This document shows positions 11,904-63,873 of a stretch of 64,000 bases of DNA, piece after piece. The notes under the pieces are model-generated. The model saw only the letters and a list, made by a program, of their open reading frames with translations, was not told where the DNA came from and did not search any database. This stretch comes from Minisyncoccota bacterium (GTDB lineage Bacteria > Patescibacteriota > Minisyncoccia > Phycocordibacterales > BOKC01). The stretch covers positions 76,551 to 140,550 of the forward strand of contig CP129473.1 in NCBI GenBank assembly GCA_030583745.1, written 5' to 3'. The number at the start of each line of letters is the position of its first letter. The stretch's first letter is position 1. A program made the translations under genes and the position numbers.

Positions 11904-12404
11904 ATGCCGAATAGCGAAAATCTGATGGAAATCTTCGAAAGGCAGATAGGGGCTGGTTTCAGGTTTGTGGATAAGGTGGTTAAGATTGATAAGGATGAAG
12001 GAACTATAATCACAACATTCGACTACTCGCTTGAAGACGAATCCAAACACTTCCTGCGCGACCATTTTTTGGGTAGACCGGCCATGCCGCTTTCTCTCAT
12101 CATTGAGATGATGGCACAGACCTGCGGTTTGTTTGTTGCAGGTGTTCTCGGAAACGGCAAGTGTTTCGTTGTCCGTTATGACAAGTGTCAGTCCGGTAGC
12201 GAGCTCGTTACTCCGCCGGTTCAGCTAGTTATCACAGCGAATTTGTTGAAAAGGAGGGGGCGGGGCACTAGAAGCTTATGGATATTTGCCGTCAAGGTGG
12301 AAACTGATCAGGCGAAGAGTGTCGGCCAGGGCGAGATCACACTTTTCGCCGGAGTTGGTTCCTCGAGATCTTCGGAAGAGCTTCAAGACGAGATTCGAGA
12401 CTGA
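11904..12404 (+). CDS. FabZ/FabA-like hotdog-fold dehydratase
   Basis: 'FRFVDKVVKID…DHFLGRPAMPLSLIIEMMAQTCG' matches the FabZ active-site region 'HFPGxPVMPGVLxIEAMAQ'. Confidence 0.7.
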   Translation: MPNSENLMEIFERQIGAGFRFVDKVVKIDKDEGTIITTFDYSLEDESKHFLRDHFLGRPAMPLSLIIEMMAQTCGLFVAGVLGNGKCFVVRYDKCQSGSELVTPPVQLVITANLLKRRGRGTRSLWIFAVKVETDQAKSVGQGEITLFAGVGSSRSSEELQDEIRD

Positions 12405-12410
12405 AATCCC

Positions 12411-12445
12411 TCCCCGCGCCCACAAGGCGCGGGGATTTTGATTTT
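12411..12445 (+). terminator. intrinsic terminator after the FabZ-like gene
   Basis: The hairpin 'tccccgcgcc-cacaa-ggcgcgggga' is followed by 'ttttgatttt'. Confidence 0.7.
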
Positions 12446-12517
12446 ATATAGTCCCTCGGGGCAGAGCCACGAGGTAATGTCGGAATCCTCCGCCAGCTGG
12501 CGAACTACGTCACTTAT

Positions 12518-12760
12518 AAAAAGAAAAAGGCCCCACGCGCGACAGGATGACACGCGGGGGCCGGAGGGCTGGGCGGAAAGAAGGTAGAGGTTGGTTTGCG
12601 ATTCAGGAATCGCTCTAGAACGACTCAACCGTTTCGCTTTACCGCTACACCCGATCAATTTTTTTCATCGGGTGCCGGATTAACCGGAGGCGGCTCCTAT
12701 GGGGGACCGACCGCGACCTTTTTCCGCCCAAGCCCTAGGGAGGGTCTCTAATCTAATATT
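12518..12760 (-). ncRNA. candidate ~240-nt ncRNA (promoter to intrinsic terminator, no ORF)
   Basis: On the minus strand an extended -10 'TGTATAAT' lies at ~12768-12775 with 'TTGCTT' upstream. A GC-rich body follows with local hairpins (CCGGUUAAUCCGG, CCGAUGAAAAAAAUUGAUCGG, GAGCGAUUCCUGAAUCGC). It ends at a strong hairpin 'ggccccacgcgcgacagg…cgcgggggcc' plus a U-tract at 12518-12562. No family was recognised. Confidence 0.35.
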
Positions 12761-12936: not shown

Positions 12937-13010
12937 TTCTCTCTCCTCTTTTATTTAAGGATGTCTTTTGAAGAACACTTGCGATATTGTATTTGAAATA
13001 TTAAAAATTT

Positions 13011-13062
13011 CAAGAGAAAAACCCGCCATCGTGTGCGCCTACAAGTCGCGAGCGATGGCGGG
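13011..13062 (-). terminator. intrinsic terminator (minus strand)
   Basis: The stem 'cccgccatcg…cgatggcggg' is followed on the minus strand by 'tttttctcttg'. Confidence 0.55.
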
Positions 13063-13192
13063 TTAAAGGGACGGGCCGAAGAATTACACTGGCGGAAAGG
13101 GGGATAGACTGGGGTGTTTTTGTCTTCCCCCGCCGTATCGTAGTGGGGGTGGAACGATATTCCGCCAGATTCTTTCGGCCCCTGGTTCCTCT

Positions 13193-13531: not shown

Positions 13532-13600
13532 TTTTGCCTCCCGTTCGTGTGTGTTTGTGTACAGAAATCTACACTCTTTATATCATTTTCTAGAAAAAAG

Positions 13601-13658
13601 AAAAACCCGTCCTGGCGGGTGGGCTGGGGGAGATGGGCAAGTGCCCGACCAGGACGGG
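13601..13658 (-). terminator. intrinsic terminator after the DUF167 gene
   Basis: A 10-bp stem 'cccgtcctgg/ccaggacggg' is followed on the minus strand by 'tttttcttttttc'. Confidence 0.55.
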
Positions 13659-13787
13659 TTGAAATGGGGGGCTACGAACCGGGGAGTTGGAATGGGCGAC
13701 ACAGTCGAATTAGTGTGTCGTTTTCCCACGGCGCCCCCTTTCTAAAGTGATAATAACAAATTATGTTTTAAAGACAAGTGGGGTGTG

Positions 13788-14066: not shown

Positions 14067-14141
14067 TCCGGCGTAGCTCAGTGGTAGAGCAAGCGACTGT
14101 TAATCGCTGGGTCGTAGGTTCGAATCCTACCGCCGGAGCCA
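14066..14141 (+). tRNA. tRNA-Asn (GUU)
   Basis: It folds as a cloverleaf with acceptor UCCGGCG/CGCCGGA, D-arm GCUC…GAGC, anticodon stem AGCGA/UCGCU with loop CUGUUAA (GUU), T-arm GUAGG-UUCGAAU-CCUAC, discriminator G and an encoded CCA. Confidence 0.9.
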
Positions 14142-14180
14142 ATAATAAAATCCTTCCCTTTTTGGGAGGGATTTTATTAT
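14141..14180 (+). terminator. long hairpin immediately 3' of tRNA-Asn
   Basis: 'aataataaaatccttccc-ttttt-gggagggattttattatt' forms an ~18-bp stem. Confidence 0.6.
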
Positions 14181-14390
14181 TGGCTCCCGAATTAAAACCT
14201 TCGCAAACTTTTGAAATTATTTTGCCAAATTTGATACACAAATCCAAAAAGCGAAATCTGAAATGATGCGCCCCGCCACTATTTTTCTGGGGTAAAGGAG
14301 GCGGGGCGATGGACTCGCCCGCGCGGAGGAGGGGTCTGGGGAGGAATCCGCGCGGGCTTCGGCTTTCTTTTTCGAAAGAATTGGCGGCTA
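14180..14390 (+). repeat. inverted repeat copy A (211 bp)
   Basis: It is ~97% identical (7 mismatches) to the reverse complement of 16305-16514. The internal hairpin 'gcgccccgccac…ggcggggcg' is present. Confidence 0.9.
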
Positions 14391-14468
14391 CAAATTGAAG
14401 AAAGAAGAAATTCATGTTAGTATAGTTGTGAGGGTTAAGTTCAACGCTCATACTTATACTATCATACT

Positions 14469-14681
14469 ATGGAAAGTAAGAACAACAGACAAATTGGGGA
14501 TAAAATAAAAGCCATGCGCACAAAGCAAGGATTGACGCAAGACGCTCTTGCGAGAAAATGCGATATTCCCTATACAACACTGACAAAGATTGAATCAAAT
14601 GTGATAAAAAAACCCTCAATTCAAACAGTTACCAAGATTGCCGAGGGGTTAGGAATAAGTATTGACGATTTAATTAAATAA
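14469..14681 (+). CDS. XRE-family HTH transcriptional regulator
   Basis: 'IGDKIKAMRTKQGLTQDALARKCDIPYTTLTKIESN' is an HTH_3 helix-turn-helix. Confidence 0.85.
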   Translation: MESKNNRQIGDKIKAMRTKQGLTQDALARKCDIPYTTLTKIESNVIKKPSIQTVTKIAEGLGISIDDLIK

Positions 14682-14682
14682 C

Positions 14683-15282
14683 ATGAATTCAATTTGTATT
14701 TTTGGAGACAGTACCGCTTGGGGTGCTTGGGATATGAAGAAAGGTGGTTGGGCAAATCGTCTATGGCTTTACGCTGGTAAGAAAACTGATGGTGAATGCG
14801 AAATTTACAATTTAAGTATTTCTGGTGGCACAACAGAAACGATACTTGAAAGGTTTGAGTCCGAAGCGAAAATCCGCGAAGCGGACGCCCTCATTTTCCA
14901 GTCCGGCGGCAATGATTCCTATCTAAAAGGCAAGAATGGCCCCAATCAAATTCCAGTTGATCAATTTAGGAAAAATCTGCAGGAAATAATCAGGAAAGCC
15001 AAAAATATCACACCAAACATAATTTTCATCGGCTTCAAAAATGTTGACGAGACAAAAACAATGCCGGTCTCATGGAAAGATATTTACTACGTCAACGCCG
15101 AAATCAAAAAGTACGACGAGATTATGAAAGATGTTTGCAAAGAAAACAACATTCCGTACTTGGATATTTTTGGCCTTCTCAAAAATGAGGATTTTGAGGA
15201 TGGTCTTCACCCCAATACTTTAGGGCATAAGAAAATTTTTGAGAAAGTGAAAAACTTTCTTGAAGAAAATAAATGGATATGA
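14683..15282 (+). CDS. SGNH/GDSL hydrolase
   Basis: Block I 'ICIFGDSTAWG', block III 'SGGND' and block V 'DGLHPN' are present. Confidence 0.85.
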   Translation: MNSICIFGDSTAWGAWDMKKGGWANRLWLYAGKKTDGECEIYNLSISGGTTETILERFESEAKIREADALIFQSGGNDSYLKGKNGPNQIPVDQFRKNLQEIIRKAKNITPNIIFIGFKNVDETKTMPVSWKDIYYVNAEIKKYDEIMKDVCKENNIPYLDIFGLLKNEDFEDGLHPNTLGHKKIFEKVKNFLEENKWI

Positions 15283-15602
15283 ATACGAAGAATGTAAAAT
15301 TTGTAGTTTTTGTTCCGCTTTCGCACGCTGATATCGTACGACAAGCGCTCGGCAAAGCCGGAGCAGGCAAAATCGGCAACTATGACTTCTGCTCATTTTC
15401 TTCTCGCGGAATCGGCCGCTTTCGCGGAAACAAAAAGACAAACCCCGCTATCGGCGAGGCAGGAAAATATGAGGTGGTAGAGGAAGAACGAATTGAGGCA
15501 GTCGTGCCACGAGAGATTTTGGGGGGAGTCATTGAGAAAGTGAAAAGCGTCCACCCATACGAAGAAGTCGCTTTTGATATTTACCCGCTAGAAAACTACT
15601 AG
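15273..15602 (+). CDS. NIF3-like small protein (C-terminal 'HPYEEVAFDIYPLEN' motif)
   Basis: The 'VHPYEEVAFDIYPLEN' terminus is typical of NIF3/YqfO-family C-termini. The protein is only 109 aa. Confidence 0.5.
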   Translation: MDMNTKNVKFVVFVPLSHADIVRQALGKAGAGKIGNYDFCSFSSRGIGRFRGNKKTNPAIGEAGKYEVVEEERIEAVVPREILGGVIEKVKSVHPYEEVAFDIYPLENY

Positions 15603-15605
15603 ATT

Positions 15606-16307
15606 ATGGCAACAATTCACAAAAAAGTTTGGCGAGAATACTTTGAGAAAATTATTTCCGGCAAGAAAAAGCTGGAGTTGCGCCTTGCCGATTTTGAGAT
15701 AAACGAGGGTGATACTTTGATTTTGGAGGAATGGGACAAAGATAAAAAAGAATATACTGGCAGAAAATTTGAAGCTGTTGCTACCTATATTCTCAAAACC
15801 AAAGACCAAACTTTTTGGTCGCAGGAGGAAGTAGAAAAGCATGGTTTTCAGATTATCCAATTTGAGCCGAAAGACAGCCTTGCTCAACGTCCGAAAGTTG
15901 GTGTTGGCGTGATGATTTTGAAGGAAAATAAAATTTTGCTAGGAAAGCGAAAAGGTTCGCATGGCGAGGGCGAGTATGCCTTCCCCGGCGGCCATTTGGA
16001 ATACATGGAATCTTTTGCGGATTGTGCTCGGCGCGAAGTGAATGAGGAATGTGGAATTGAGATTGAAAATATCCATTTCCAATATTTGGCGAATATCATA
16101 AAGTACGCGCCGAAGCACTATACGCATATCGGTCTTGTGGCAGATTGGAAAAGCGGTGAGCCAAAAGTTTTAGAACCGGAAAAATCAGAATCGTGGGGTT
16201 GGTATGAAATAGACAACTTGCCTCTACCGATTTTTGAGATGTGCAAGTTGGCTGTTCAATGCCACAAGACCGGAAAGAATTATTTGGATGTTTCCGATTT
16301 GAAATAG
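15606..16307 (+). CDS. ASCH-domain / NUDIX hydrolase fusion protein
   Basis: The N-terminal ASCH-like part is 'KVWREYFEKIISGKKKLELR'. The C-terminal Nudix box is 'GGHLEYMESFADCARREVNEECGIE'. Confidence 0.8.
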   Translation: MATIHKKVWREYFEKIISGKKKLELRLADFEINEGDTLILEEWDKDKKEYTGRKFEAVATYILKTKDQTFWSQEEVEKHGFQIIQFEPKDSLAQRPKVGVGVMILKENKILLGKRKGSHGEGEYAFPGGHLEYMESFADCARREVNEECGIEIENIHFQYLANIIKYAPKHYTHIGLVADWKSGEPKVLEPEKSESWGWYEIDNLPLPIFEMCKLAVQCHKTGKNYLDVSDLK

Positions 16308-16514
16308 CCGCCAATTCTTTCGAAAAAGAAAGCCGAAGCCCGCGCGGATTCCTCCCCAGACCCCTCCTCCGCGCGGACAAGTCCGTCGCCCCGCCTCCTT
16401 TGCCCCAGAAAAATAGTGGCGGGGCGCATCATTTCAGATTTCGCTTTTTAGATTTGTGTATCAGATTTGGCAAAATGATTTCAAAAGTTTGCGAAGGTTT
16501 TAATTCGGGAGCCA
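16305..16514 (-). repeat. inverted repeat copy B (210 bp)
   Basis: It is the reverse complement of copy A. Its outer end 'aattcgggagccaa' mimics the tRNA-Asn 3' end. Confidence 0.9.
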
Positions 16515-16618
16515 AGAAACTAGATACGAACTCATTTTTTGAATATGAGAGTGTTCGCTCCGCCTTCGCTAAAGCTATGACGGACACGCCGTCTAGCCCC
16601 GAGAGTGGCGGGGCTGTT

Positions 16619-33074: not shown

Positions 33075-33184
33075 AAGATAAATATATCACAAACAAATAT
33101 CATCTAAATTTAATAAGGGATGTCAGACGTCCCTTATAATATTAAGGACTTGCGATGTCCTTAATATTAAAAAAGAAAAAACCC

Positions 33185-33225
33185 GCGCTGGCCGGCTCTT
33201 GCGAGCGGCTAGCGCGGGGGTATGG
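33185..33225 (-). terminator. intrinsic terminator after the GC-rich membrane-protein gene
   Basis: On the minus strand 'cccgcgctagccgctcgcaagagccggccagcgcggg' is followed by 'ttttttc'. Confidence 0.6.
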
Positions 33226-33226
33226 C

Positions 33227-33700
33227 TTAAGCCGAGATCCCTCGGTTCTGTCCTCGGATCAGACCCAGAAGGAATCGGGTTGAGAATAACCCGATTCCCC
33301 AGACCGTGCCGACGACCGGCAATGCCGTAAGCCACATAACCCAGAACGGCTCCTTAGCTCCTTCGTCCTTGGCGGTGCTGGAGGCGACAGCAGTCATGAG
33401 GGCAACGAGGACGAGGAGGGAGACGGTGGAGACCACACTGGAGGTTGCGGTGCGGAGGGCGAGAACGGCGATTGCGGTGGCACAGGCGGCGAAGGCGGCG
33501 GGGATGATGAGGGCGAAGACGCGAGAAGTGAAGGCGCAGGAGACGAAGGCGGCGGCGAAGAGGGCGAAGGCGGCGGCGAGGGCGGCGAGGGCGGCGGAGG
33601 TAGAGGCAGTTCTGAAATCGCCGGTAATGGCGTATACGCCGCCTCCTACGATACACTGAAGGCCGAGTACGAACGTCGTATAGATCCACAGCTTCTTCAT
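33227..33700 (-). CDS. GC-rich (~65%) Ala-rich multi-TM membrane protein
   Basis: The RBS 'GGGAGAACGAA-ATG' gives MKKLWIYTTFVLGL… Its composition is atypical for this genome. Confidence 0.5.
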   Translation of the reverse strand: MKKLWIYTTFVLGLQCIVGGGVYAITGDFRTASTSAALAALAAAFALFAAAFVSCAFTSRVFALIIPAAFAACATAIAVLALRTATSSVVSTVSLLVLVALMTAVASSTAKDEGAKEPFWVMWLTALPVVGTVWGIGLFSTRFLLGLIRGQNRGISA

Positions 33701-53221: not shown

Positions 53222-53359
53222 TAAAAATTTTTGTTTAAGATGTGGTTTGCTAGTTGGCAAAGAGAGAAAAAGAGAAGGTTACTTTTTCATTCCCTCGCCA
53301 TACAGCGCGCCTTCGGCGCGCCCAGATTTTGCGCTTACTTCCGACCAAGTTTCTGAATG

Positions 53360-53603
53360 TGACGATATTATAGCCTTTGCTCGAACCTATTTCGAGTCAA
53401 AGACCGACTGACTTCGCACGCGCGGAGCGCGTGGTGGCTTGGAACTACATCGTACGCTCCGATCGCGTGGTGATGCCAACTCATGCTGCCAGCGCCTCGA
53501 CAAGCTCGGCGCTCCGCCCTCGCCCCGTTTCCGCTCTCCATGCTTTTTCTTTTTTCGCGGGGGGATTTTTTTAAAAATTGAATGGGCGGAAAACGGGGCT
53601 CGG
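53360..53603 (+). repeat. inverted repeat IR244 left copy
   Basis: It is 100% identical to the reverse complement of 59256-59498. The track ORFs 53377..53574 (+) and 59284..59481 (-) give identical 65-aa translations. Confidence 0.9.
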
Positions 53604-53604
53604 T

Positions 53605-54260
53605 CGGGCTTCACCTAAAAGGGTGAAGCGTGGCGTCATTCGTTCAGTGGTGCCTCGGATCTATTCTATCAATTTTGCGTTCATGGCTAAAGGGACGGCA
53701 CCCTCGGCATCCACCTCGGGCTATTTCCGCTAGGGCTACGAGCGCCTAGATGCCTAGGAGTGTCGCTTTTCCTCGCAAGTGCGCCTTGCTAGGCGCTTGC
53801 TCGGGCGACACGCAGTTTGGGGGAAGGAAGGAATCCTTCCCCCAGCTTCGGGCTCCTCCTCGCAGTGGTCGTTCGGAGTGTACGGTGCCGTACAGATAAC
53901 AAGGTACGTCGTGAGTTTCTCTCTCGCTTTGACGTGCCTTCGGAGTCCGCCTTCGCACAACCCCCATCCTCGTTTTCAATATTTCTTTCGTGGTGTCGCT
54001 TCCGCTACGATACTTTGTTTTGCAATATAACGTCGGCGCTCGTCCTTTAGCCCTGGACGCTCCTAGCGGAAATAGCCCGAGGGCTCTGCCTTATGTGCTT
54101 GCCCCAGGCCGTGTTAGTACACGGCTCCCACCCGTGCGCGCACAAACCCCGCCCGCAAGCGGGCGGGACTCCCTGCAAAATGCAAGTGCCCTCGGGAGGA
54201 TTCGAACCTCCAAGATCGGGGTAGAGGCCCGACAGTTTATCCATTAGCTTACGAGGGCAA
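53605..54260. ncRNA. candidate large structured RNA (GC-rich, ORF-free, extensive self-complementarity); identity unknown
   Basis: The region is ~58% GC. The long-range pair 'cctcgggctatttccgctagg' (53722-53742) faces its reverse complement at 54061-54081. Many local hairpins are present (gggggaagg…ccttccccc, gtacggtgccgtac, cccgcccgcaagcgggcggg). The strand of transcription is uncertain. Confidence 0.35.
54185..54256 (-). other. tRNA-like element (T-arm GGAGG-UUCGAAU-CCUCC and 7-bp acceptor GCCCUCG/CGAGGGC; irregular D/anticodon arms; no CCA)
   Basis: On the minus strand it reads 'gccctcgtaagctaatggataaactgtcgggcctctaccccgatcttggaggttcgaatcctcccgagggca'. The anticodon stem 'ucggg/cccga' has loop 'ccucuac' (C at position 33). 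The D-arm is poorly paired, so it is likely a pseudo-tRNA or a structural mimic. Confidence 0.4.
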
Positions 54261-54345
54261 AGAGAAAGAAGCGCATAAATGCGCTGGGGGAATTCTTTAT
54301 CTTCTGTGCCTCGTATTAAACATTACTGTTTACATTAACATTTTT

Positions 54346-54373
54346 TTGAAAAAATAAAAACAAGAGTTATAAT
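54346..54373 (+). promoter_or_regulatory. sigma-70 promoter (TTGAAA-16-TATAAT)
   Basis: It lies upstream of a ~170-nt GC-rich leader that precedes the YjzC-like ORF. Confidence 0.5.
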
Positions 54374-54544
54374 TCAACAATTGAAGTCCTTTGAAATGCT
54401 GGCGGGATAGTCGGAGCGCCCTTTTCTGCATCTTAGGGGATCATCTCACCTCCTCCCCCCTGGTCAGTGCTTTTTCGAGCATTGACTCGGGGGCGCGTAG
54501 CAGGTCGAGCCCCTGGATTACCAGAATTAAGCGAAACGATTGTT

Positions 54545-54706
54545 ATGACTAAAGTCAAAACAGGCGGTACTGCTAAAAAATCTGGACAGTATAGAGTCGA
54601 GGGTACAAAAACCCTCGAGATTACATTGTCTAGAGGCGATCGCGTTCCACCTCATGGAGGAAAGGCGAGAACCTTTGTGCTCGTTGATAAGACGAAACAC
54701 AAATAG
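54545..54706 (+). CDS. YjzC-like small protein (53 aa)
   Basis: 'VKTGGTAKKSGQYRVEGTKTLEITLSRGDRVPPHGGKARTFVLVDK' follows the YjzC pattern (K.G..AP..G.Y.e.G…i.L..GD.fP…..W). The start is at the internal ATG and the RBS is weak. Confidence 0.4.
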   Translation: MTKVKTGGTAKKSGQYRVEGTKTLEITLSRGDRVPPHGGKARTFVLVDKTKHK

Positions 54707-54750
54707 TAAGTAACCGCTAAACTTTTCCTGCCAGCATTTCAGAGGATTTT

Positions 54751-56238
54751 CTATTTTATTCTCAAAAATGGTTTGCTAAGGGTTAAGCGATAATCTCCAA
54801 AAAACTCTTTTATCGTCTTTCTGGTCCTGTGTTTTTCAATGTATTGATCTAAATAAGTGAGTAGTTCTTTTTCAACCTCGACGAAGCTGTCTGGGCAAAT
54901 AGATTTGTAATGATTGACCCAACCGCCAGCAAAAGATTTGTATGCCTTAATTACTTCTCCAAAATCAAATTTTTTGACGATACCAACATTTACAATTTCG
55001 CGCTCAAAAGTGTTTTTAAATTCCTGGATTGCCTCCTTGGGAATGAAAAGACTATTTTTCGAAATACCAACCCCAAGGAATTCGAAACTATTTCCATCAA
55101 TATTTAATAACTGTGTTTTACTACCAACCTCAAGTGGGTGTAATTTCAATTTAAGTTTCTCGCTTCCTGATTTAATTAACTCATATACATTATTTGCTTG
55201 ACCTTCACTTTTTGAAAGAACGATCATGTCATCAAGGTATCTGAAACCCTTGCACCCTTTTACTTTGTTAGGAATTTTATCAAGTGGTAAGGCGTAATAA
55301 CTTGAGAGAAATGGTGAGTATGAAAGACCCTGCGGAATGCCAGTGGTCTTTAGTTTAAGGTGTCCAAATGTTCCATGAAAATCTGAATCTGCCTCAATTT
55401 TATTTTCTATGGATACCTTTATTAATCGAAATAATCTGCGTTGATCTTTGCCTCTGAATTTTTTACTCAGTTGCTTTAATAAAATACTTCTATCAATGGA
55501 TGAGAAAAAATCTTTAAAATCTAATTTTAAAATATAGCGAGCCTCGCCATTTTTTAAAGCTCTCTGTATTTCATTGAGTATTCGCTTACATTCACTGGTG
55601 TCTTTTTCTTTCTTAATACCAAGTCCAAGTGCACCGTATTCCTCTAAGGCTGGTTTTAGAATATTACAAACTTTTGGAAATACGGCTGATAAAACGATCC
55701 GGTCTTTTGAAGAAGGGATAAGAAGGGGTCTATATTTTCCGTTAGATTTTCTTATTTTCAAACCAGAATATGGTAAGAAAGAAAATCGCCGTAATTCTTT
55801 CGAGTAGAATTCGGCTACACTTATCTTCTTTATGTATTTCCCTAGATCATTTAGCTCCCGCTCCTCTATTCCTGAAAATCTTTTTAAATCTGAAAAGTTT
55901 TTGCGAAATACTTTACGTCTCAAACTCTTAAATGCACTTGCGATTTGTTCTTGAGTTAAAAGCAGTTGCAGGTTCACATAATTTTCTATGATAGACGACC
56001 TCACTGGACTCGAACCAGTGCATGTTCCGAAAGATCGTGCTCCCTTAAGGGTAGAGGCTACTGCCGAAGCGATAGCCTCACCATTAAGGGTACTACTTTT
56101 CAGTCCGTTCGTCAACCGAAGTTGATAGACTTTCCTAATCGGTAGGTGGCGACCTGCAAGAGTAAAGTTTATGGCGTGCATAATTCTTTTCCCTCGCAGG
56201 AAGTCGTGAGCCGAAGCCCACTGTAAAATATTATACAT
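54751..56238 (-). CDS. group-II-intron-like reverse transcriptase with maturase/X (thumb) domain, not embedded in an intron ribozyme (G2L-type)
   Basis: RT motifs 1-7 are present: 'NGKYRPLLIPSSKDRIV', 'LKLDFKDFFSSI', 'GIPQGLSYSPFL', 'FRYLDDMIVL' and 'LHPLEV…'. The X-domain 'AGGWVNHYKS' is also present. No D1-D3 or D5/D6 intron RNA is found; flanks are occupied by other genes. The first ~85 codons of the track ORF overlap structured RNA (see findings). Confidence 0.8.
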   Translation of the reverse strand: MYNILQWASAHDFLRGKRIMHAINFTLAGRHLPIRKVYQLRLTNGLKSSTLNGEAIASAVASTLKGARSFGTCTGSSPVRSSIIENYVNLQLLLTQEQIASAFKSLRRKVFRKNFSDLKRFSGIEERELNDLGKYIKKISVAEFYSKELRRFSFLPYSGLKIRKSNGKYRPLLIPSSKDRIVLSAVFPKVCNILKPALEEYGALGLGIKKEKDTSECKRILNEIQRALKNGEARYILKLDFKDFFSSIDRSILLKQLSKKFRGKDQRRLFRLIKVSIENKIEADSDFHGTFGHLKLKTTGIPQGLSYSPFLSSYYALPLDKIPNKVKGCKGFRYLDDMIVLSKSEGQANNVYELIKSGSEKLKLKLHPLEVGSKTQLLNIDGNSFEFLGVGISKNSLFIPKEAIQEFKNTFEREIVNVGIVKKFDFGEVIKAYKSFAGGWVNHYKSICPDSFVEVEKELLTYLDQYIEKHRTRKTIKEFFGDYRLTLSKPFLRIK

Positions 56239-56303
56239 TAACCGGCTTATTCAGCAATAGAAAATCTGTGGATAACTCGCTGTAGTTTTCGGTATTCTTT
56301 CGG

Positions 56304-56325
56304 TTATAATATGCTTATATTATAA
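56304..56325. promoter_or_regulatory. palindrome TTATAATAT-gctt-ATATTATAA in the divergent RT / LexA-MTase promoter region
   Basis: It has 9-bp inverted arms and lies 20 bp upstream of the LexA-MTase ATG. It is a candidate operator. Confidence 0.4.
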
Positions 56326-56345
56326 CATATAACTTTTTATAAATT

Positions 56346-57914
56346 ATGAGATCTCTTACCATAAGACAAAAGCAAATATTCGATTTCATTGACTCCTATA
56401 TAGCGAAGAAAGGCATTTCTCCCACAATAGACGAGATAAGGAAAAAGTTTAAATTAAAATCAGTTTCTACTATTCATCAGCATATAAACGCTTTAGTTGA
56501 AAAAGGTTATTTAGAAAAAGATGAAAAATCCGTCCGAGGTCTTAAAATAAAAGGAGAAACTGACTCTATAAGAATTCCCGTTGTTGGAATGATTGCCGCC
56601 GGACAGCCGATTGAAGCAATAGAGAATATTGAGAGACATATCGGTGTAAGCCGAAGCGTAGTGAAAAATAGCGATGATCATTATGCCTTGCGAGTAACTG
56701 GAGAGAGTATGATTGATGAAGGTATTTTTGATGGAGATATTGTTATCATAAAAAAGCAGTCAGTGGCTGAAAACGGACAAACTGTAGTAGCAATAATCGA
56801 TGACAATGAGGCTACGTTGAAAAAAATATATAGGGAGAAAAACAGATTTAAACTTGAACCGGCAAATCAGAGCATGCTCCCTTTTTATCGCAAAGAGGTG
56901 GAAGTGCGAGGTGTCGTTGTGCAGGTTATCAGAAATATTGATAATCGTCCCGAGGATAAAAAAATTCAGAAAAATGGCTATAAGACCGTTGACTTGTTTG
57001 CTGGTGTAGGAGGAATACGTCTCGGATTTGAAAAAGTCGGTTTTGAAACTGTGTTTGCAAATGATTTTGAACCGCAATGCAAGGACACTTATGATCTTAA
57101 TTTTGACACCTCAAAGCTCGTCGTAGAAGACATAAGAAAAATTGGCATCGAAGATTTGCCTGAATTTGATTTTCTCCTCGGGGGTTTCCCGTGCCAGGCG
57201 TTCTCTATTGCCGGATATAGGCAGGGATTTGGAGATGAGAAAGGTCGCGGAAATTTATTTTTTGACATAGCAAGAATGTTAGAAGCAAGAAAGCCGACAG
57301 GATTTCTTTTAGAGAATGTAAAAAATCTAATGGGCCATGACAAAGGCAGGACTTTCAAAATTATTAAAGAAACTCTTGAGGGTCTAGGTTATCATGTCCA
57401 TGCAAAGGTTCTCAACACTATGGAGTACGGAAACATTCCGCAAAATCGCGAGAGAATTTATATTGTTGGATTTAGGGACAAAAAGCATTTTGAAAGGTTT
57501 GAATATCCTAAGCCCGTTAAACTAGCTGTAAGCGTTACCGACATGCTAGAGGACGAGGTGGATAAAAAATATTATTACAATGGAAAACCCCTATTCCCAA
57601 GGTTAAAAGACGATGTTAAAAAAGAAGGAACGGTTTATCAGTGGAGGAGGAAATATGTCCGGGAAAACAAAAGCGGAGTATGCCCAACGCTTACCGCAAA
57701 TATGGGAACCGGCGGGCATAATGTTCCGATTATCAAAGATAAAAAAGGAATAAGAAAACTAACCCCTTTAGAGTGTTTTAGAATTCAGGGATTTCCAAAA
57801 CACTACAAGCTTCCAGAATTGGCTGACTCTGCACTGTACAAGCAGGCAGGAAATTCGGTTTCTGTGCCAGTAATAGAAGCCGTGGCAAAAGAGATGCTGA
57901 ACGCCGTTAGTTAG
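56346..57914 (+). CDS. LexA repressor (HTH + S24 peptidase) fused in-frame to DNA (cytosine-5)-methyltransferase
   Basis: Residues 1-~200 align with E. coli LexA. This includes the cleavage-site 'IAAGQP', catalytic Ser 'TGESM' and Lys 'TLKKIY', and 'GVVVQVIRNI'. Residues ~205-522 carry C5-MTase motif I 'FAGVGGIRLGF', motif IV 'GGFPCQAFS' and motif VI 'LLENVKNL'. Confidence 0.85.
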   Translation: MRSLTIRQKQIFDFIDSYIAKKGISPTIDEIRKKFKLKSVSTIHQHINALVEKGYLEKDEKSVRGLKIKGETDSIRIPVVGMIAAGQPIEAIENIERHIGVSRSVVKNSDDHYALRVTGESMIDEGIFDGDIVIIKKQSVAENGQTVVAIIDDNEATLKKIYREKNRFKLEPANQSMLPFYRKEVEVRGVVVQVIRNIDNRPEDKKIQKNGYKTVDLFAGVGGIRLGFEKVGFETVFANDFEPQCKDTYDLNFDTSKLVVEDIRKIGIEDLPEFDFLLGGFPCQAFSIAGYRQGFGDEKGRGNLFFDIARMLEARKPTGFLLENVKNLMGHDKGRTFKIIKETLEGLGYHVHAKVLNTMEYGNIPQNRERIYIVGFRDKKHFERFEYPKPVKLAVSVTDMLEDEVDKKYYYNGKPLFPRLKDDVKKEGTVYQWRRKYVRENKSGVCPTLTANMGTGGHNVPIIKDKKGIRKLTPLECFRIQGFPKHYKLPELADSALYKQAGNSVSVPVIEAVAKEMLNAVS

Positions 57915-58956
57915 TTGATATCTTATCAAACAGATCCACAAGATCTTGCGTGGAGTCATTGCCAAATTTCTCAAGCGTGTATTTTAGCGCAATGTTCTCA
58001 TTCCATTTAGAGCTCCGGTCAAATTTATTGAGGTTGATGACAATGTTACCTTTTTGAACAGGAATTCCACTAATTCTAATATCATCTGTAGAATGTATAT
58101 ACAAAGAGCCTTTGTTTTTCTTTAGAATTGTTATCTCTGTTTTGTTTTCACTTTCAATAGCGAACGGAAGACAAACATATCCTTTATCGTATGTATAGGT
58201 AAACCTATTGTTTCCGTCCAAAACCATTTTCTCTTTAAGATTTGCCCCGCGAGGATCTTTATTTTCAGCGCCGGCAAAATAGTACGGGCTCACATCCTTT
58301 TTGCAAAGCGTGAAATTATTTTGAACCTCGCCTTTTGTGTAAATGCCAATTAAGCGCATTGTGCCAACTTTTGCGGTTTTAGAAACAGTAGAATGAGGAA
58401 TAATTTGTTTGTCTTTGTCGCTTTCAATAAATTCGTCGCTCATTTTAAGCTCCTCAAAATATTTGTCAGCAAATGTTTCTTCTTCAAACAGCGATGTCAA
58501 ATAATCTCCCTCCAGATCGGACTCAATAAATGCATAATAATCATCAATCATTTGCGGTTCCCGTACCCCAAGTAACGCCTGATCTTTCCGCACAACTTTA
58601 ACCTCGATCCTCGGCATGCCATCAATATTTGTCCAGGTTCCGTTATTGTATTTTACAAAAGGAATAGTCTTTCCGTCGGAAGTTTGAAGTCCGAGAATAT
58701 CAGGCGCGTTCTTATCAGAGTCGTTAGCATATATAAAATAATCTGAAATAACTTTATATTTGTTATCCTCCAGCAATTTTTCAAAGATAACTGTTTCTGC
58801 GATTTTATTGAACCACCTTTCAATATAACCGCCGATTAAATCTCTTTTAGCAGAAGTGCCCTGGCGATGAAGCGGGTCGCCTTTAAACTTCATTAGAATG
58901 AAGTAAACAATTTTTCTAAGATCATCTTTTGTTATTTCTATTTCCGGGTATTTCAT
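57907..58956 (-). CDS. putative type II restriction endonuclease (PD-(D/E)xK)
   Basis: It converges on and overlaps the MTase by 8 bp. It lies directly downstream of a C-protein gene. A candidate 'PD…(E)VK' motif is 'APDILGL…RIEVKVV'. Confidence 0.55.
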   Translation of the reverse strand: MKYPEIEITKDDLRKIVYFILMKFKGDPLHRQGTSAKRDLIGGYIERWFNKIAETVIFEKLLEDNKYKVISDYFIYANDSDKNAPDILGLQTSDGKTIPFVKYNNGTWTNIDGMPRIEVKVVRKDQALLGVREPQMIDDYYAFIESDLEGDYLTSLFEEETFADKYFEELKMSDEFIESDKDKQIIPHSTVSKTAKVGTMRLIGIYTKGEVQNNFTLCKKDVSPYYFAGAENKDPRGANLKEKMVLDGNNRFTYTYDKGYVCLPFAIESENKTEITILKKNKGSLYIHSTDDIRISGIPVQKGNIVINLNKFDRSSKWNENIALKYTLEKFGNDSTQDLVDLFDKISTN

Positions 58957-58958
58957 AA

Positions 58959-59171
58959 TTATTTGAATCGCAAAAGCTCATCAGGATCCACATCCAGAGC
59001 GTCTGATATCTTTTTTATATTCTCAACAGAAACATTGCGCTCGCCTCGTTCAATATCGCTCATGTATGTTCTGTGCAGTTTCGCTTTTGTAGCGAGTTTT
59101 TCCTGCGAAATACCCGCCTCCAAGCGAAGTTCTTTAATTTTCTGTCCTAATTGTTTCTTAATATTTGACAT
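58959..59171 (-). CDS. controller (C) protein, XRE-family HTH
   Basis: The 70-aa product contains 'LGQKIKELRLEAGISQEKLATKAKLHRTYMSDIERGERNVS'. The stop abuts the downstream REase start. A C-box lies upstream. Confidence 0.75.
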   Translation of the reverse strand: MSNIKKQLGQKIKELRLEAGISQEKLATKAKLHRTYMSDIERGERNVSVENIKKISDALDVDPDELLRFK

Positions 59172-59228
59172 GCAAAGTCTGGTAACTTATTGACTACATC
59201 ATATCTTTTTGAGTAAAATAGGGCTACA

Positions 59229-59249
59229 GACTATAAGTGACGTATAGTC
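59229..59249. promoter_or_regulatory. C-box-like palindrome GACTATA-N7-TATAGTC
   Basis: It lies ~58 bp upstream of the C-protein start and matches the GACT…AGTC C-box consensus. Confidence 0.55.
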
Positions 59250-59255
59250 TAAGCC

Positions 59256-59498
59256 CGAGCCCCGTTTTCCGCCCATTCAATTTTTAAAAAAATCCCCCCG
59301 CGAAAAAAGAAAAAGCATGGAGAGCGGAAACGGGGCGAGGGCGGAGCGCCGAGCTTGTCGAGGCGCTGGCAGCATGAGTTGGCATCACCACGCGATCGGA
59401 GCGTACGATGTAGTTCCAAGCCACCACGCGCTCCGCGCGTGCGAAGTCAGTCGGTCTTTGACTCGAAATAGGTTCGAGCAAAGGCTATAATATCGTCA
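59256..59498 (-). repeat. inverted repeat IR244 right copy
   Basis: It is the perfect reverse complement of 53360-53603. Confidence 0.9.
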
Positions 59499-59578
59499 CA
59501 ATTTAGAACTTTTCCCAATGCGCGTCGCTCCGCGACGAATTCGGACGGAACTGGCGCGCCGAAGCGCGCGGATTTGTC
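59496..59578 (+). repeat. inverted repeat IR83 left copy
   Basis: It is the perfect reverse complement of 60994-61076. It contains the GCGCGC-UUCG-GCGCGC hairpin and lies in the recombinase promoter region. Confidence 0.9.
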
Positions 59579-59604
59579 TCTTGTTTCGTATCTAAAAAAA
59601 ATCT

Positions 59605-61092
59605 ATGTCCAAACCAAAATATTTTCTTTACGCTCGCAAATCGACGGAAGATGATGACAAGCAGGTCATGTCTATCGAGGCTCAACTTTTTGAATTGCGA
59701 GAGTTTGCACGTAAAGAAAATCTTGAAATTGTTGAGACATTTCAAGAGTCGAAAAGCGCAAAGACTCCGGGCAGGCCTCTGTTCAACAAGATGATGGCGA
59801 AGATAGAGGAAATGGAGAATGTCGGCATTCTTGCGTGGCATCCGGATCGTCTCGCGAGAAATAGCGTGGACGGCGGTCGCATCATCTATCTTGTTGACCA
59901 GAAGAAAATCACGTCTTTGCGCTTTCCGACATTTTGGTTTGAACCCACCCCGCAGGGGCTCTTTATGTTGCAAGTGGCGTTCGGTCAATCGAAGTATTAC
60001 TCCGACAACTTGGTGGAGAACACCAAGCGCGGGATGCGCCAAAAAGTGCGGCGAGGCGAGTGGCTCACAAAAGCGCCGTTCGGGTACGTGAACAATCCGA
60101 AGACGAGGAATATCGAACCGCACCCGACTCATTCCAAAATCATCGTCCGCGCTTTTGAGGAGTATGCGAAAAAATCGCACACGCTGAAATCACTCGCCGA
60201 TTTTTTGGCGCTTCACGGAGTAAGTACTTCCAAAGGTACGCCACTTGGCAAAGCTTCCATCAAACGAATGCTGACCAACAGGGCATATTTGGGATTTGTG
60301 AAGCATAAGGAGGAATGGTTTGACGGAAGCTTTGCGCCAATTCTTTCCCCGAAATTGTTTGAAGCCGTGCAAAAGGTATTAGCGACAAGAGAACGCCCGC
60401 GCAAAACAAAGACCGGCCACAATTTTCCTTTCGTTGGACTTTTTCGTTGCGGAGAGTGCGGGAGCATGATCACTGCGCAGTGGGCGACGGGGAAATCAGG
60501 AGGACGGTATCGGTACTATCGGTGCACGAAAAAGAAAGGAAATTGTGACCAAGGGTATATGCGCGAGGAATCTCTTGTCGCAGACGTAAAGGAACGGCTC
60601 CAAACAATTTCGCTTTGCGATGAGGATACTGATTATATGCTCAAGTGCGTTCTGCAATTCGAGCAAGAGGAAAACCGCTCATCGCAAAGCCGCGTTCAAA
60701 ATCTTTCTTTCAAACTCAAAGCAAGCGAGGAGAAGCTTGACCGTCTTGTCTCGGCCTTTATTGATGGTGACATTCCAAAGGAAATTTATCTCGCCAAGAA
60801 GGACAAGCTGATGCGGGAATCACTTGCTTTGCGGGAACAGCGGAAAGATTTTGAACGCGAGGGAAAGAATTGGGTCGAACCCCTACGGGAGTGGATTTTA
60901 GATACGAAACAAGCCAATTTTTTGAGCTCATCCGCTGATTTTCACAAAATCAGCTCCTTCGTCAAAAAAGTTGGAACGAACCCTACGGTTCGTGACAAAT
61001 CCGCGCGCTTCGGCGCGCCAGTTCCGTCCGAATTCGTCGCGGAGCGACGCGCATTGGGAAAAGTTCTAAATTGTGACCCTATCGGGATTTGA
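59605..61092 (+). CDS. large serine recombinase (resolvase/integrase)
   Basis: The N-terminal resolvase domain 'YARKSTEDDDKQVMSIEAQ' carries the catalytic Ser. A recombinase domain and zinc ribbon 'CGECGSM…YYRCTKKKGNC' follow, with a C-terminal coiled coil. Confidence 0.9.
   Translation: MSKPKYFLYARKSTEDDDKQVMSIEAQLFELREFARKENLEIVETFQESKSAKTPGRPLFNKMMAKIEEMENVGILAWHPDRLARNSVDGGRIIYLVDQKKITSLRFPTFWFEPTPQGLFMLQVAFGQSKYYSDNLVENTKRGMRQKVRRGEWLTKAPFGYVNNPKTRNIEPHPTHSKIIVRAFEEYAKKSHTLKSLADFLALHGVSTSKGTPLGKASIKRMLTNRAYLGFVKHKEEWFDGSFAPILSPKLFEAVQKVLATRERPRKTKTGHNFPFVGLFRCGECGSMITAQWATGKSGGRYRYYRCTKKKGNCDQGYMREESLVADVKERLQTISLCDEDTDYMLKCVLQFEQEENRSSQSRVQNLSFKLKASEEKLDRLVSAFIDGDIPKEIYLAKKDKLMRESLALREQRKDFEREGKNWVEPLREWILDTKQANFLSSSADFHKISSFVKKVGTNPTVRDKSARFGAPVPSEFVAERRALGKVLNCDPIGI
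60994..61076 (-). repeat. inverted repeat IR83 right copy
   Basis: It overlaps the last ~30 codons of the recombinase and ends 3 nt inside the tRNA-Glu 3' end. Confidence 0.9.
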
Positions 61093-61148
61093 ACCCGAGT
61101 TTTCGCCTTGAGAAGGCGACGTCCTAGACCAGACTAGACGATAGGGCC
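61074..61148 (-). tRNA. tRNA-Glu (CUC)
   Basis: On the minus strand it reads GGCCCUA-UC-GUC…GAC-G-UCGCC-UUCUCAA-GGCGA-AAAC-UCGGG-UUCAAAU-CCCGA-UAGGGUC-A. Acceptor stem is 7 bp (one G·U), D-stem 3 bp. Anticodon loop is UUCUCAA, giving anticodon CUC. No CCA is encoded. Confidence 0.75.
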
Positions 61149-63131: not shown

Positions 63132-63267
63132 GCGCTAGGAGATTAGGCGCTAGGCGCTAGGAGAAATAGGAGAAAAAATTCTTGTAGTTTGCAAGTTTTT
63201 TTTGTTTCTGTTGATTTATTAAATAAAGAATGTCAGCTGTTTCTTGAAAGTTTATTTAATAAAAATC

Positions 63268-63298
63268 CACCTCGCGGTCGAGGTGGATGGTGCGGCGG
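63268..63298 (-). terminator. intrinsic terminator after the Clp_N gene
   Basis: On the minus strand 'ccatccacctcgaccgcgaggtggattttt' forms the hairpin and U-tract. Confidence 0.6.
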
Positions 63299-63318
63299 CG
63301 GGGGCTATGAGGTCAGTA

Positions 63319-63873
63319 TCAATGTTCGCCCATGATACGAACAATCTCTGCAAGATCCAGAAGTCGTCTGGCATCTCTCTTGAGTTTAGCCACGATCTGC
63401 TCCGTACTCTCGTCTTCGGGGTCAGAACTGTCGTTTCCCCTCAAAAGCGCGTGGACTTCATCGATATCCAGATTGAGGTCCGTGAGGAACTGTGCGTCAC
63501 AACCATAGGTCTCGCGGAGCAGGCCGAAGAGCAGATGATCGGTGCCGACACGTTTGTGGTTGAGTATGCGCGCCATTTCTCTGGCGTACTCAACGACTCT
63601 TTCGGCACTCTGTGTTCGGGGAAGAAAGTTACCCAAGATAGTGGGCATCTCTAGGGTGGCGCTCTCGATGACGAGTGCGTCTTTCAACTTAAGAAGCGCC
63701 TCGCTCGGTCTCACACCAAGGTGTTGGAGTATATCCGTGCTGGCGCTTGGGTTCTCTTCCATTAATCCCAACAGGAGGTATTCGGGTCGAATGCTGTCAC
63801 GGCCTTGATGCAATGACCACCAATTGGCTCGAATCATCGCTTTGGTGGCCGTAGTGGAAAGCCCCTGAAACAT
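63319..63873 (-). CDS. stand-alone double Clp-N (ClpA/B/C N-terminal) domain protein, GC-rich
   Basis: Two Clp_N repeats are 'PEYLLLGLMEE…' and 'TDHLLFGLLRE…'. The RBS 'AAGGAG' is 7 nt before the ATG at 63873. The gene is ~55% GC. Confidence 0.6.
   Translation of the reverse strand: MFQGLSTTATKAMIRANWWSLHQGRDSIRPEYLLLGLMEENPSASTDILQHLGVRPSEALLKLKDALVIESATLEMPTILGNFLPRTQSAERVVEYAREMARILNHKRVGTDHLLFGLLRETYGCDAQFLTDLNLDIDEVHALLRGNDSSDPEDESTEQIVAKLKRDARRLLDLAEIVRIMGEH

Follow-up and report, generated by a model that had tools for sequence, protein, structure and literature searches.

Two stacked inverted repeats and a large serine recombinase gene at a tRNA-Glu locus of a Minisyncoccota bacterium: a probable integrative element with a duplicated, inverted attachment region

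The locus and its two inverted repeats

The window analyzed here is a stretch of 64,000 nucleotides from the genome of a Minisyncoccota bacterium (GTDB phylum Patescibacteriota; GenBank assembly GCA_030583745.1, contig CP129473.1, positions 76,551 to 140,550 of the forward strand), and all coordinates below refer to positions within it. An island at 53364-61077 borders a tRNA-Glu(CTC) gene and contains, next to this tRNA, a gene for a 495-aa large serine recombinase (LSR) preceded by a block of cargo genes, with two inverted repeats arranged around both. We interpret the island as an LSR-driven integrative element that targets tRNA 3' ends and carries its attachment region twice, in inverted orientation, a reading to which we assign a probability of roughly 0.7.

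A repeat search of the window yielded a long inverted repeat with arms at 53347-53603 and 59255-59511 (257 nt, 98% identity) and a short one with arms at 59490-59578 and 60994-61082 (89 nt, 98%), the latter flanking the 495-aa LSR open reading frame (ORF). By base-by-base comparison, the long repeat is perfect over 246 bp (53358-53603 being the reverse complement of 59255-59500), a stretch that encloses the 100% identical 244-bp arms reported in a first-pass annotation of this DNA, and the short repeat is perfect over 84 nt (59495-59578 and 60994-61077). The right long arm does abut the short repeat, as that annotation had it, with an overlap that we measured as 6 nt (GTCACA, 59495-59500) rather than 3 nt. 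These 6 bp, read as TGTGAC on the opposite strand, constitute a core sequence that is also the 3' end of tRNA-Glu. Both long arms contain the identical 65-aa ORFs previously seen on opposite strands (53377-53574, plus; 59284-59481, minus), and their dismissal as spurious holds, the arm in fact encoding a 17-codon alternative tail for the LSR. Apart from these two repeats, the entire 64-kb window has a single inverted repeat longer than 40 nt (a 214-nt pair beside a tRNA-Asn gene), and the two inverted repeats of the island are far beyond chance expectation. The two are a single feature, namely, the halves of a duplicated and inverted attachment-site region of the 7.7-kb island.

Arms that are 100% identical beyond typical k-mer lengths, in a metagenome-assembled genome, might also result if the assembler had created a chimeric or fold-back join. 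This explanation, also raised in the first-pass annotation, is extremely unlikely. Logan unitigs from three sequencing runs confirm three of the junctions and break off ~30 nt (k-1) into the repeats (L001 at 59284, L099 at 53387, and L104 at 61048), which is the behavior expected of true repeats. Moreover, the layout recurs in dozens of independent assemblies generated by different assemblers, many of them with imperfect arms (89-99% identical), and the arms are bounded by a biological crossover core that the empty-site alleles described below define.

Attachment sites and the mobile unit

We refer to the 78 nt ahead of the core in the LSR 3' end as L2 and to the 240 nt past the core in the long arm as R1; the attachment region of the island is then composed of L2, TGTGAC, and R1 (78 + 6 + 240 bp). 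The features involved are as follows.

53285-53357, plus strand: a-left, the left flank of site A; a relic L2 arm from the 3' end of an earlier LSR gene of the type found in locus L039, now a tRNA-Glu trailer
53358-53363, plus strand: site A core, TGTGAC; attL-type junction on the left of the island, located by empty-site contigs
53364-53603, plus strand: R1, left arm of the long repeat, a perfect match to 59255-59494
59255-59578, minus strand: site B, an intact inverted attachment region of 324 bp with a full-length match to the attP profile (E=2e-14)
59463-59491, plus strand: promoter-like TCGAAA-17-TATAAT at the outer end of R1 (10/12 in a consensus scan)
59554-59569, plus strand: G+C hairpin in the LSR leader with GGATTTGTC after it, from a scan for terminator-like elements
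59605-61092, plus strand: LSR gene, 495 aa (Pfam Resolvase, Recombinase, and Zn_ribbon_recom)
60994-61071, plus strand: L2, right arm of the short repeat, coding for the LSR C-terminus (repeat comparison)
61072-61077, plus strand: site C core, TGTGAC; attR-type junction on the right of the island, equal to the last 5 nt of tRNA-Glu plus the discriminator
61073-61148, minus strand: tRNA-Glu(CTC), the integration target, with a T-arm predicted to give a B'-type half-site (ARAGORN, Rfam)

Site A (53358) reads a-left, TGTGAC, R1; site B (59255-59578, minus strand) reads L2, TGTGAC, R1; and site C (61072) reads L2, TGTGAC, tRNA-Glu. The core is the only sequence common to all three, and site B, formed by the right long arm (59255-59500) together with the left short arm (59495-59578), combines the L2 of C with the R1 of A. 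Site B looks like an intact element attachment site (attP) accompanied by its own attL and attR, but inverted and internal. The attP profile, which extends from the end of L2 through the core to the start of R1, also matches R1 of the left arm (E=6e-15), which carries a putative P'-type half-site with the motif TTTGCTCGAAC and opens with 17 codons for the alternative tail of the LSR (DDIIAFARTYFESKTD, then stop). Where the two repeats meet lies the crossover core of an attachment site for a serine recombinase, which bears out the earlier impression of stacked recombination sites.

The extent of the mobile unit is defined by empty-site contigs, which were found by look-up of the neighboring YqeY protein in Logan contigs from other sequencing runs. 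Three of them (L102, L103, and L106) are devoid of the island and join 53363 straight to 61078 between flanks that are 99.4% identical to those of the window; the junction reads ...CTGAATGTGAC / CCTATCGGG... (also given as ...CCAAGTTTCTGAATGTGAC / CCTATCGGGATTTGAACCC). Occupied and empty alleles differ by exactly 7,714 bp (53364-61077), bounded by TGTGAC and inclusive of the LSR gene. Since near-identical strains lack precisely the sequence between the two outer cores, the mobile unit is 53364-61077 with its recombinase rather than the repeat-bracketed 6.1 kb that the first-pass annotation termed the cargo. Four more contigs terminate exactly at the core, indicating a branch at this position in the respective samples.

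The same indel bears on the possibility of a composite or fold-back transposon, in which the 246-bp arms would be the terminal inverted repeats of an autonomous 6.1-kb unit. Long terminal inverted repeats enclosing variable cargo are in line with such a unit, as is the second repeat pair of the window (14177-14390 and 16305-16518), which has no recombinase nearby. The sequence missing from related strains, however, is the 7,714-bp unit with the LSR and not the 6.1-kb repeat-bounded one, no transposase is found in the cargo by Pfam, PADLOC, or NCBIfam, a direct target duplication is absent (the flanking TGTGAC copies are inverted), and the arm ends are LSR half-sites; taken together, these observations make a transposon highly improbable. 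Integron-like capture of cargo at site B was likewise considered and rejected, A and B being inverted relative to each other and the indel comprising the whole unit with the LSR.

The left flank of the island proved informative with regard to the history of the site. Both L2 arms of locus L039 match a-left at 98.7% identity over 79 nt (53285-53363), and in-frame translation of a-left gives ...FIPSPYSAPSARPDFALTSDQVSECD / ...SAPSARPDFALTSDQVSECD, as at the C-terminus of the LSR from L039; we therefore rejected the interpretation of a-left as an arm of a virgin host site (attB). It is also present in the island-free contigs L102, L103, and L106. Thus, the nominally empty site is an attR-type scar left by an earlier member of the family at a position that had been used before. 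The tRNA-Glu spot displays a further presence/absence polymorphism in two other samples, where the tRNA-Glu site is empty and a 430-aa gene with an N-terminal hydrophobic segment and no family on record is located between a Mur ligase gene and the relic L2 (L100:3546-4835 and L101:2646-3935).

The recombinase family, its tails and the proposed circle

The LSR matches Pfam families PF00239 (3e-24), PF07508 (5e-13), and PF13408 (6e-12). Its catalytic YARKS motif is invariant (Y9, R11, and S13 are unchanged in 36 relatives), and its nearest solved structure is the SPbeta integrase (E=5e-13, aligned over residues 9-414). The last ~32 codons sit in the L2 arm and core, with the core at codons 490-491 and, hence, attP inside the ORF, and the last 5 codons are antisense to tRNA-Glu. 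More than 6,700 relatives were found (the best 120 being 70-89% identical), and those carrying a source name belong to Patescibacteria; at least 597 species-level genomes have a relative. A protein look-up returned no record of the exact window LSR in assemblies. A viral origin was rejected, as IMG/VR contains no relatives and phage and plasmid collections contain them only at <=28% identity.

We surveyed 160 related loci from species-representative genomes and metagenomes, with a few more added via exact protein look-up. A short repeat flanking the LSR gene and reaching a tRNA 3' end on its outer side was detected in 70 of 95 loci, and a long repeat or A-type half-site abuts it in 34 of the 47 with enough upstream sequence. 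The arms vary in length from 69 to 435 nt and in identity from 89 to 100% (median 99.1%, with seven perfect pairs), and the cargo ranges from 0.6 to 7.7 kb. Among complete loci, 91/145 have an antisense tRNA at the LSR 3' end, the targets covering 13 tRNA types overall (Glu 30, Ser 15, Pro 13, Leu 9, Ala 7, Arg 6, and others). Profile searches revealed, in nearly all related loci, a full-length inverted site that precedes the LSR by 100-180 nt and, another 1.4-7 kb upstream, a half-length one made of core and R1, as well as a full-length site at the LSR 3' end in a minority of contigs, in which the ORF does not run into a tRNA. The double-repeat layout, which is also present in a 640-kb contig (L089, perhaps from a long-read assembly to judge by its name), is a family trait of Patescibacteria LSR elements. 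The cargo is wholly different between elements (restriction-modification systems, a type IV secretion system-like ATPase, ATP-binding cassette transporters), and in a distant LSR subfamily it is reduced to one gene of varying function.

This recurrence also makes it improbable that the window contains a one-off, functionless inverted duplication whose arms are identical merely because they are young. Perfect arm identity and the polymorphism of the island among 99.4%-identical strains would fit such an event; on the other hand, the layout is shared by elements with LSRs down to 45% identity and with different arm sequences, and it is, therefore, older than this insertion.

Two related loci have features of their own. 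In one (L080:9783-11607), each of the L2 arms flanking the LSR (140 nt, 94%) abuts a tRNA-Leu gene (caa upstream, gag downstream), and neither an R1 arm nor cargo is present within reach of the LSR; the locus is either an LSR-only cassette or a product of recombination with a second tRNA. In the other (L007:3830-3935), the left flank of site A contains a look-alike of the tRNA-Glu 3' half (GGGGGTTCGATTCCCTGTGAGGTC) followed by a terminator hairpin and pointing the other way from the intact tRNA-Glu that lies at the opposite end, which may be the scar of an earlier rearrangement.

Two classes of C-termini follow a conserved ...EVSxC in the 120 best relatives. In class 1, the ORF continues into the antisense tRNA (e.g., DPTGNRTPI...), and in class 2 (13/120) it ends in a conserved xxIxAFARTYFExKxD and stop, which is exactly what L2-core-R1 of the window would encode (NCDDIIAFARTYFESKTD, then stop). 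This match implies that the junction of LSR body, L2, core, and R1 exists in nature; indeed, it is spanned by one contig (L014, L2 of 128 nt) assembled at k=141. The two classes suggest that the LSR protein is altered by integration. All class-2 contigs among the 120 clusters are <=7.1 kb, and their interpretation as circles is weakened by one of them (L040), which continues into chromosomal-type genes.

The only intergenic DNA upstream of the LSR gene is 59172-59604, which holds site B, the neighboring gene (a helix-turn-helix, HTH, gene) being divergent; judging from this gene arrangement, the LSR promoter and leader must lie there. The predicted promoter at 59463-59491 points across the core to the LSR, and the same promoter-like element in the left arm (53395-53367, minus strand) points out of the island. 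The hairpin with GGATTTGTC recurs in the other arm of the short repeat as a putative trailer/terminator supplied by the element to tRNA-Glu. LSR bound at its own site B could, furthermore, repress its own gene.

Some regularities of the half-sites are consistent with the chemistry of known serine integrases. The most conserved block of R1, TTTGCKCGAAC, has YGAAC in common with the reverse complement of the tRNA T-arm, and this motif is located 18-19 nt from the divergence point in R1 versus 13 nt in the tRNA, that is, 5-6 bp farther from the core in 37 of 45 loci. In serine integrases, the motif of the second DNA-binding domain (zinc-ribbon) is ~5 bp nearer the center in attB than in attP (PMC11722253). 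In agreement with this published offset, the outer 25 bp of R1 may represent a P'-type half-site and the T-arm a B'-type half-site; the offset is seen for the right half-site, the left flank of the target being a relic L2 arm. A T-arm acting as host half-site would explain how one enzyme family reaches many tRNA species.

We propose that the element carries its attachment region twice, once at the 3' end of the LSR gene, with the ORF passing through, and once directly upstream of the LSR. Integration via the copy at the LSR 3' end would have split it, placing R1 at the far end of the island (A) and keeping L2 with the LSR at tRNA-Glu (C). The second copy (site B) would have stayed whole, and the 246-bp repeat would then be A versus B and the 84-bp repeat B versus C. 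The donor circle would have the order LSR body, first copy (L2, core, R1), cargo, second copy (reverse complements of R1, core, and L2), LSR body. Given that serine recombination is conservative, we deduce that the excised circle must hold two inverted attP copies dividing the LSR body from the cargo. Perfect arm identity would reflect recent mobility and/or gene conversion between the copies, and two copies would allow integration or inversion in alternative orientations, the one with the LSR running into the tRNA strongly predominating. A single-stranded fold-back attP, as in CTX-like phages, was rejected by reasoning that double-strand exchange with a hairpin stem would cap the chromosome ends.

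Alternative orientations are found among the surveyed loci. In L020 (at tRNA-Glu) and L123 (at tRNA-Ser), the order is tRNA, core, reverse complement of L2, leader, LSR, i.e., the LSR segment is reversed, and L153 has this reversed order with a decayed LSR; in L045, a structured RNA-like module that elsewhere stands beside site A is beside site B. As evident from the opposite LSR orientation in L020 and L123 and from the module at B in L045, elements of this family do use their other attP copy or undergo inversion between their arms. Two further loci with an identical LSR and different sequence past R1 (L014 and L015) were regarded as inversion isomers, an interpretation since withdrawn, R1 (243 nt) being longer than k=141 and the continuation past R1, hence, unlinked to the LSR.

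The invertible segment raised as an alternative in the first-pass annotation is, thus, correct insofar as both orientations exist among genomes (L020, L123, and L045); it finds no support as a programmed switch, and the cargo has no conserved switchable content. Such a switch would consist of regulatory flipping of the cargo and/or the LSR segment at appreciable frequency, by the LSR or by RecA via the long arms, and candidates for control would be LSR expression and tail (a flip restores the native tail and places the gene behind the tRNA promoter) or expression of the defence cargo. Inverted repeats that are perfect in many loci would suit this scenario, as would the reversed LSR segments (L020, L123, and L153), the module at the B arm of L045, and the exchange of tail and upstream promoter that, by sequence, an LSR-body flip would bring about. 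We nevertheless consider a programmed switch unlikely, as the bias is strong (LSR orientation ~91:3; an HTH gene beside B in ~45 loci with few exceptions), and inversion of cargo between 246-bp identical arms alters nothing within 246 bp of either junction. Moreover, cargo is unrelated between elements, down to single genes of differing function, so that no gene is conserved as the object of a switch. LSRs act as integrases, and the short hix-type sites of invertases do not resemble A, B, or C. Opposite orientations were, in addition, observed between genomes only, the L014/L015 pair being indecisive with R1 longer than k.

Several points weigh against the interpretation of the island as an integrative element with two inverted attachment regions. 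No circular form was found, no contig with terminal redundancy occurs among the surveyed loci, and IMG/VR is without relatives. The contigs in which the LSR runs into R1 could also be flipped integrated copies, one of them (L040) being followed by chromosomal-type genes. The LSR orientation of ~91:3 differs from the roughly equal numbers expected if both attP copies were equally usable, and this bias would demand selection or some putative asymmetry; our guess is that an LSR standing behind a tRNA promoter is selected against. The promoter call at 59463-59491 is a consensus match and not evidence of function. Finally, gain or loss of the present island paired an attP-type with an attR-type site, a combination that canonical serine integrases use only with a directionality factor, and none was identified here. 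Either the left half-sites are undifferentiated in this family, or a directionality factor takes part.

A more far-reaching and tentative version of the proposed element, which we consider possible though somewhat doubtful, is a distinct, Patescibacteria-specific 'twin-attP' class with the T-arm as host half-site and both attP copies competent, permitting integration in either orientation, tail swap, inversion, and splitting. If so, splitting would give rise to LSR-only cassettes between tRNAs (as in L080) and to recombinase-less, repeat-bracketed islands (possibly the tRNA-Asn island of the window described below), and such elements could drive tRNA-to-tRNA chromosomal rearrangements.

Known systems, cargo and other features of the window

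The serine integrases phiC31, Bxb1, A118/LI, SPbeta SprA, and SCCmec Ccr share with the island the three-domain enzyme, conservative insertion with a short shared core, and the outer motif offset of ~5 bp between element and host half-sites. The island LSR differs in being <=28% identical to known plasmid and phage enzymes, in targeting tRNA 3' ends (of 13 kinds), and in having an ORF that passes through attP; unlike single-attP elements, the island has another full attP, inverted, ahead of the gene, and its identity arms are hundreds of bp rather than ~50 bp long. In the yeast 2-micron plasmid, FLP/FRT lies inside 599-bp inverted repeats. Its two unique segments separated by long identical inverted repeats with a recombinase site resemble the circle deduced here, whereas the island enzyme is a serine recombinase, the element integrates into the chromosome, and its circle is a deduction. 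Domain annotation of the cargo gave no replication gene, and no origin was found. Tn4451 and Tn5397 (with TnpX and TndX) are small LSR-driven elements that excise as a circle, the joint of their ends bearing on recombinase expression. They lack long inverted repeats and a tRNA target, and their promoter is formed only in the circle, while in the island the predicted promoter-bearing joint is permanently present as copy B. Hin and Gin are similar in having a serine recombinase gene in or beside a segment bounded by inverted repeats. However, the Hin/Gin/Cin/Pin enzymes are small invertases with a C-terminal HTH that act on 26-bp sites with an enhancer and Fis, as opposed to a 495-aa integrase-type LSR with repeats made of att halves and one dominant orientation.

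Archaeal integrases of the SSV1 type are tyrosine recombinases with attP inside the integrase gene, which is split in two upon integration into a tRNA target (PMC8371274). The island resembles them in the location of attP within the recombinase ORF, in a gene product changed by integration, and in the tRNA target, and it differs in that its serine enzyme would exchange just the last ~17 codons and keep an intact spare copy of the tail-coding sequence. Tycheposons of Prochlorococcus are also small cargo islands at tRNA genes of streamlined genomes, in a different host phylum; most have tyrosine recombinases (LSR in 27/937), and 'inverted repeat' occurs in the text only in the reference list (bioRxiv 10.1101/2020.12.28.424599). 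A description of the double-repeat layout was not found in the searchable full-text literature, a weak negative since most subscription-journal papers are outside this search. Overall, enzyme class and insertion chemistry are those of known serine integrases, and the architecture is widespread and apparently undescribed.

Patescibacteria have tiny genomes with few recognized mobile elements and, to our knowledge, no genetic tools. The LSR family is abundant and carries defence and other genes into their tRNA loci. A compact integrase whose host half-site is apparently the conserved tRNA T-arm is of practical interest. The second inverted attachment site is not foreseen by canonical models of serine-integrase directionality, and a target that is the scar of an earlier family member suggests natural recombination between non-canonical site pairs. 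Possible uses concern gene flow in Patescibacteria and integrase engineering.

Between the long arms, the island contains, in this order, a GC-rich non-coding block, tRNA-Arg(TCT), a reverse transcriptase (RT), a fusion of LexA with a C5-methylase, a 349-aa protein, and the HTH gene, as listed below.

53698-54147, plus strand: conserved, structured RNA-like module, ~450 nt, GC-rich and non-coding (nhmmer, covariation)
54186-54258, minus strand: tRNA-Arg(TCT) inside the island, convergent with the RNA module (ARAGORN, Rfam)
54751-56238, minus strand: RT, 495 aa, UG17-like / group-II-like (Pfam RVT_1, 8e-22)
56346-57914, plus strand: LexA (DNA-binding domain and S24 peptidase) fused to a C5 cytosine methyltransferase (Pfam, NCBIfam)
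57907-58956, minus strand: 349-aa protein without a match in Pfam, PADLOC, or NCBIfam
58959-59171, minus strand: small XRE-type HTH gene, control-protein-like, divergent from the LSR (PADLOC Control_protein, 2e-27)

The 349-aa protein, placed between the methylase and the control protein (C-protein), is presumed from this position to be a restriction endonuclease, and the LexA-methyltransferase ORF beside these two genes may belong to a damage-responsive restriction-modification system. At least 40 related loci have an equivalent of the HTH gene immediately inward of the B arm (tblastn survey). The best match of the RT is PADLOC RT_UG17 (4e-39), and its score against the NCBIfam group II RT (124 bits) is under the cutoff of 300; a surrounding group II intron was rejected on account of this score and because only 107 nt precede the gene, and the RT neighborhood shows no evident intron RNA domains. 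An identical RT protein is present in Logan contigs of two runs, and the RT is absent from related elements. The repeat arms were also evaluated as a structured-RNA gene (rejected, Rfam being empty at gathering thresholds and at E up to 5) and as the repeat of a retron or diversity-generating retroelement (rejected, since identical arms afford no template/variable pair and the RT is missing from related elements). A 53-aa ORF (54545-54706) next to tRNA-Arg is bracketed by a 24-nt imperfect inverted repeat (54384-54407 and 54726-54749).

The RNA module was detected by nhmmer in 10 distinct loci of the ~160 with an LSR, always at the inner end of R1, and has no Rfam match. It is closed by a 21-bp stem (53714-53734 and 54062-54082). 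In an 11-locus alignment, 26 of the 67 predicted pairs have compensatory changes (5-13 in slid controls), and 91.9% of cells are paired, as compared with 83.4% in shuffles, none of which (0/500) reached this value. Invariant G-U pairs indicate the plus strand, co-directional with the LSR in the deduced circle. The module is probably an accessory part of the element backbone in one sub-lineage.

A second repeat-bracketed island is located at 14067-16519 of the window and starts with tRNA-Asn (plus strand) and a 39-nt perfect hairpin, followed by 214-nt arms (14177-14390 and 16305-16518, 96% identity) whose ends mimic the tRNA-Asn 3' end (TGGCTCC / GGAGCCA). The genes between the arms code for an HTH protein, a GDSL lipase, and an ASCH-NUDIX protein, and a recombinase is absent. 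In topology the island matches the one at tRNA-Glu, save that a hairpin stands in place of the LSR segment; the attP profile has no match on its arms, which leaves a family link unproven. The window also features short GC-rich stretches at 12400-12760, 13000-13190, 13590-13750, 33100-33600, and 63250-63700 (up to 68% G+C versus 41% overall); the one at ~33.5 kb consists of GGCGGCGA-like repeats, and several others are intergenic and hairpin-rich.

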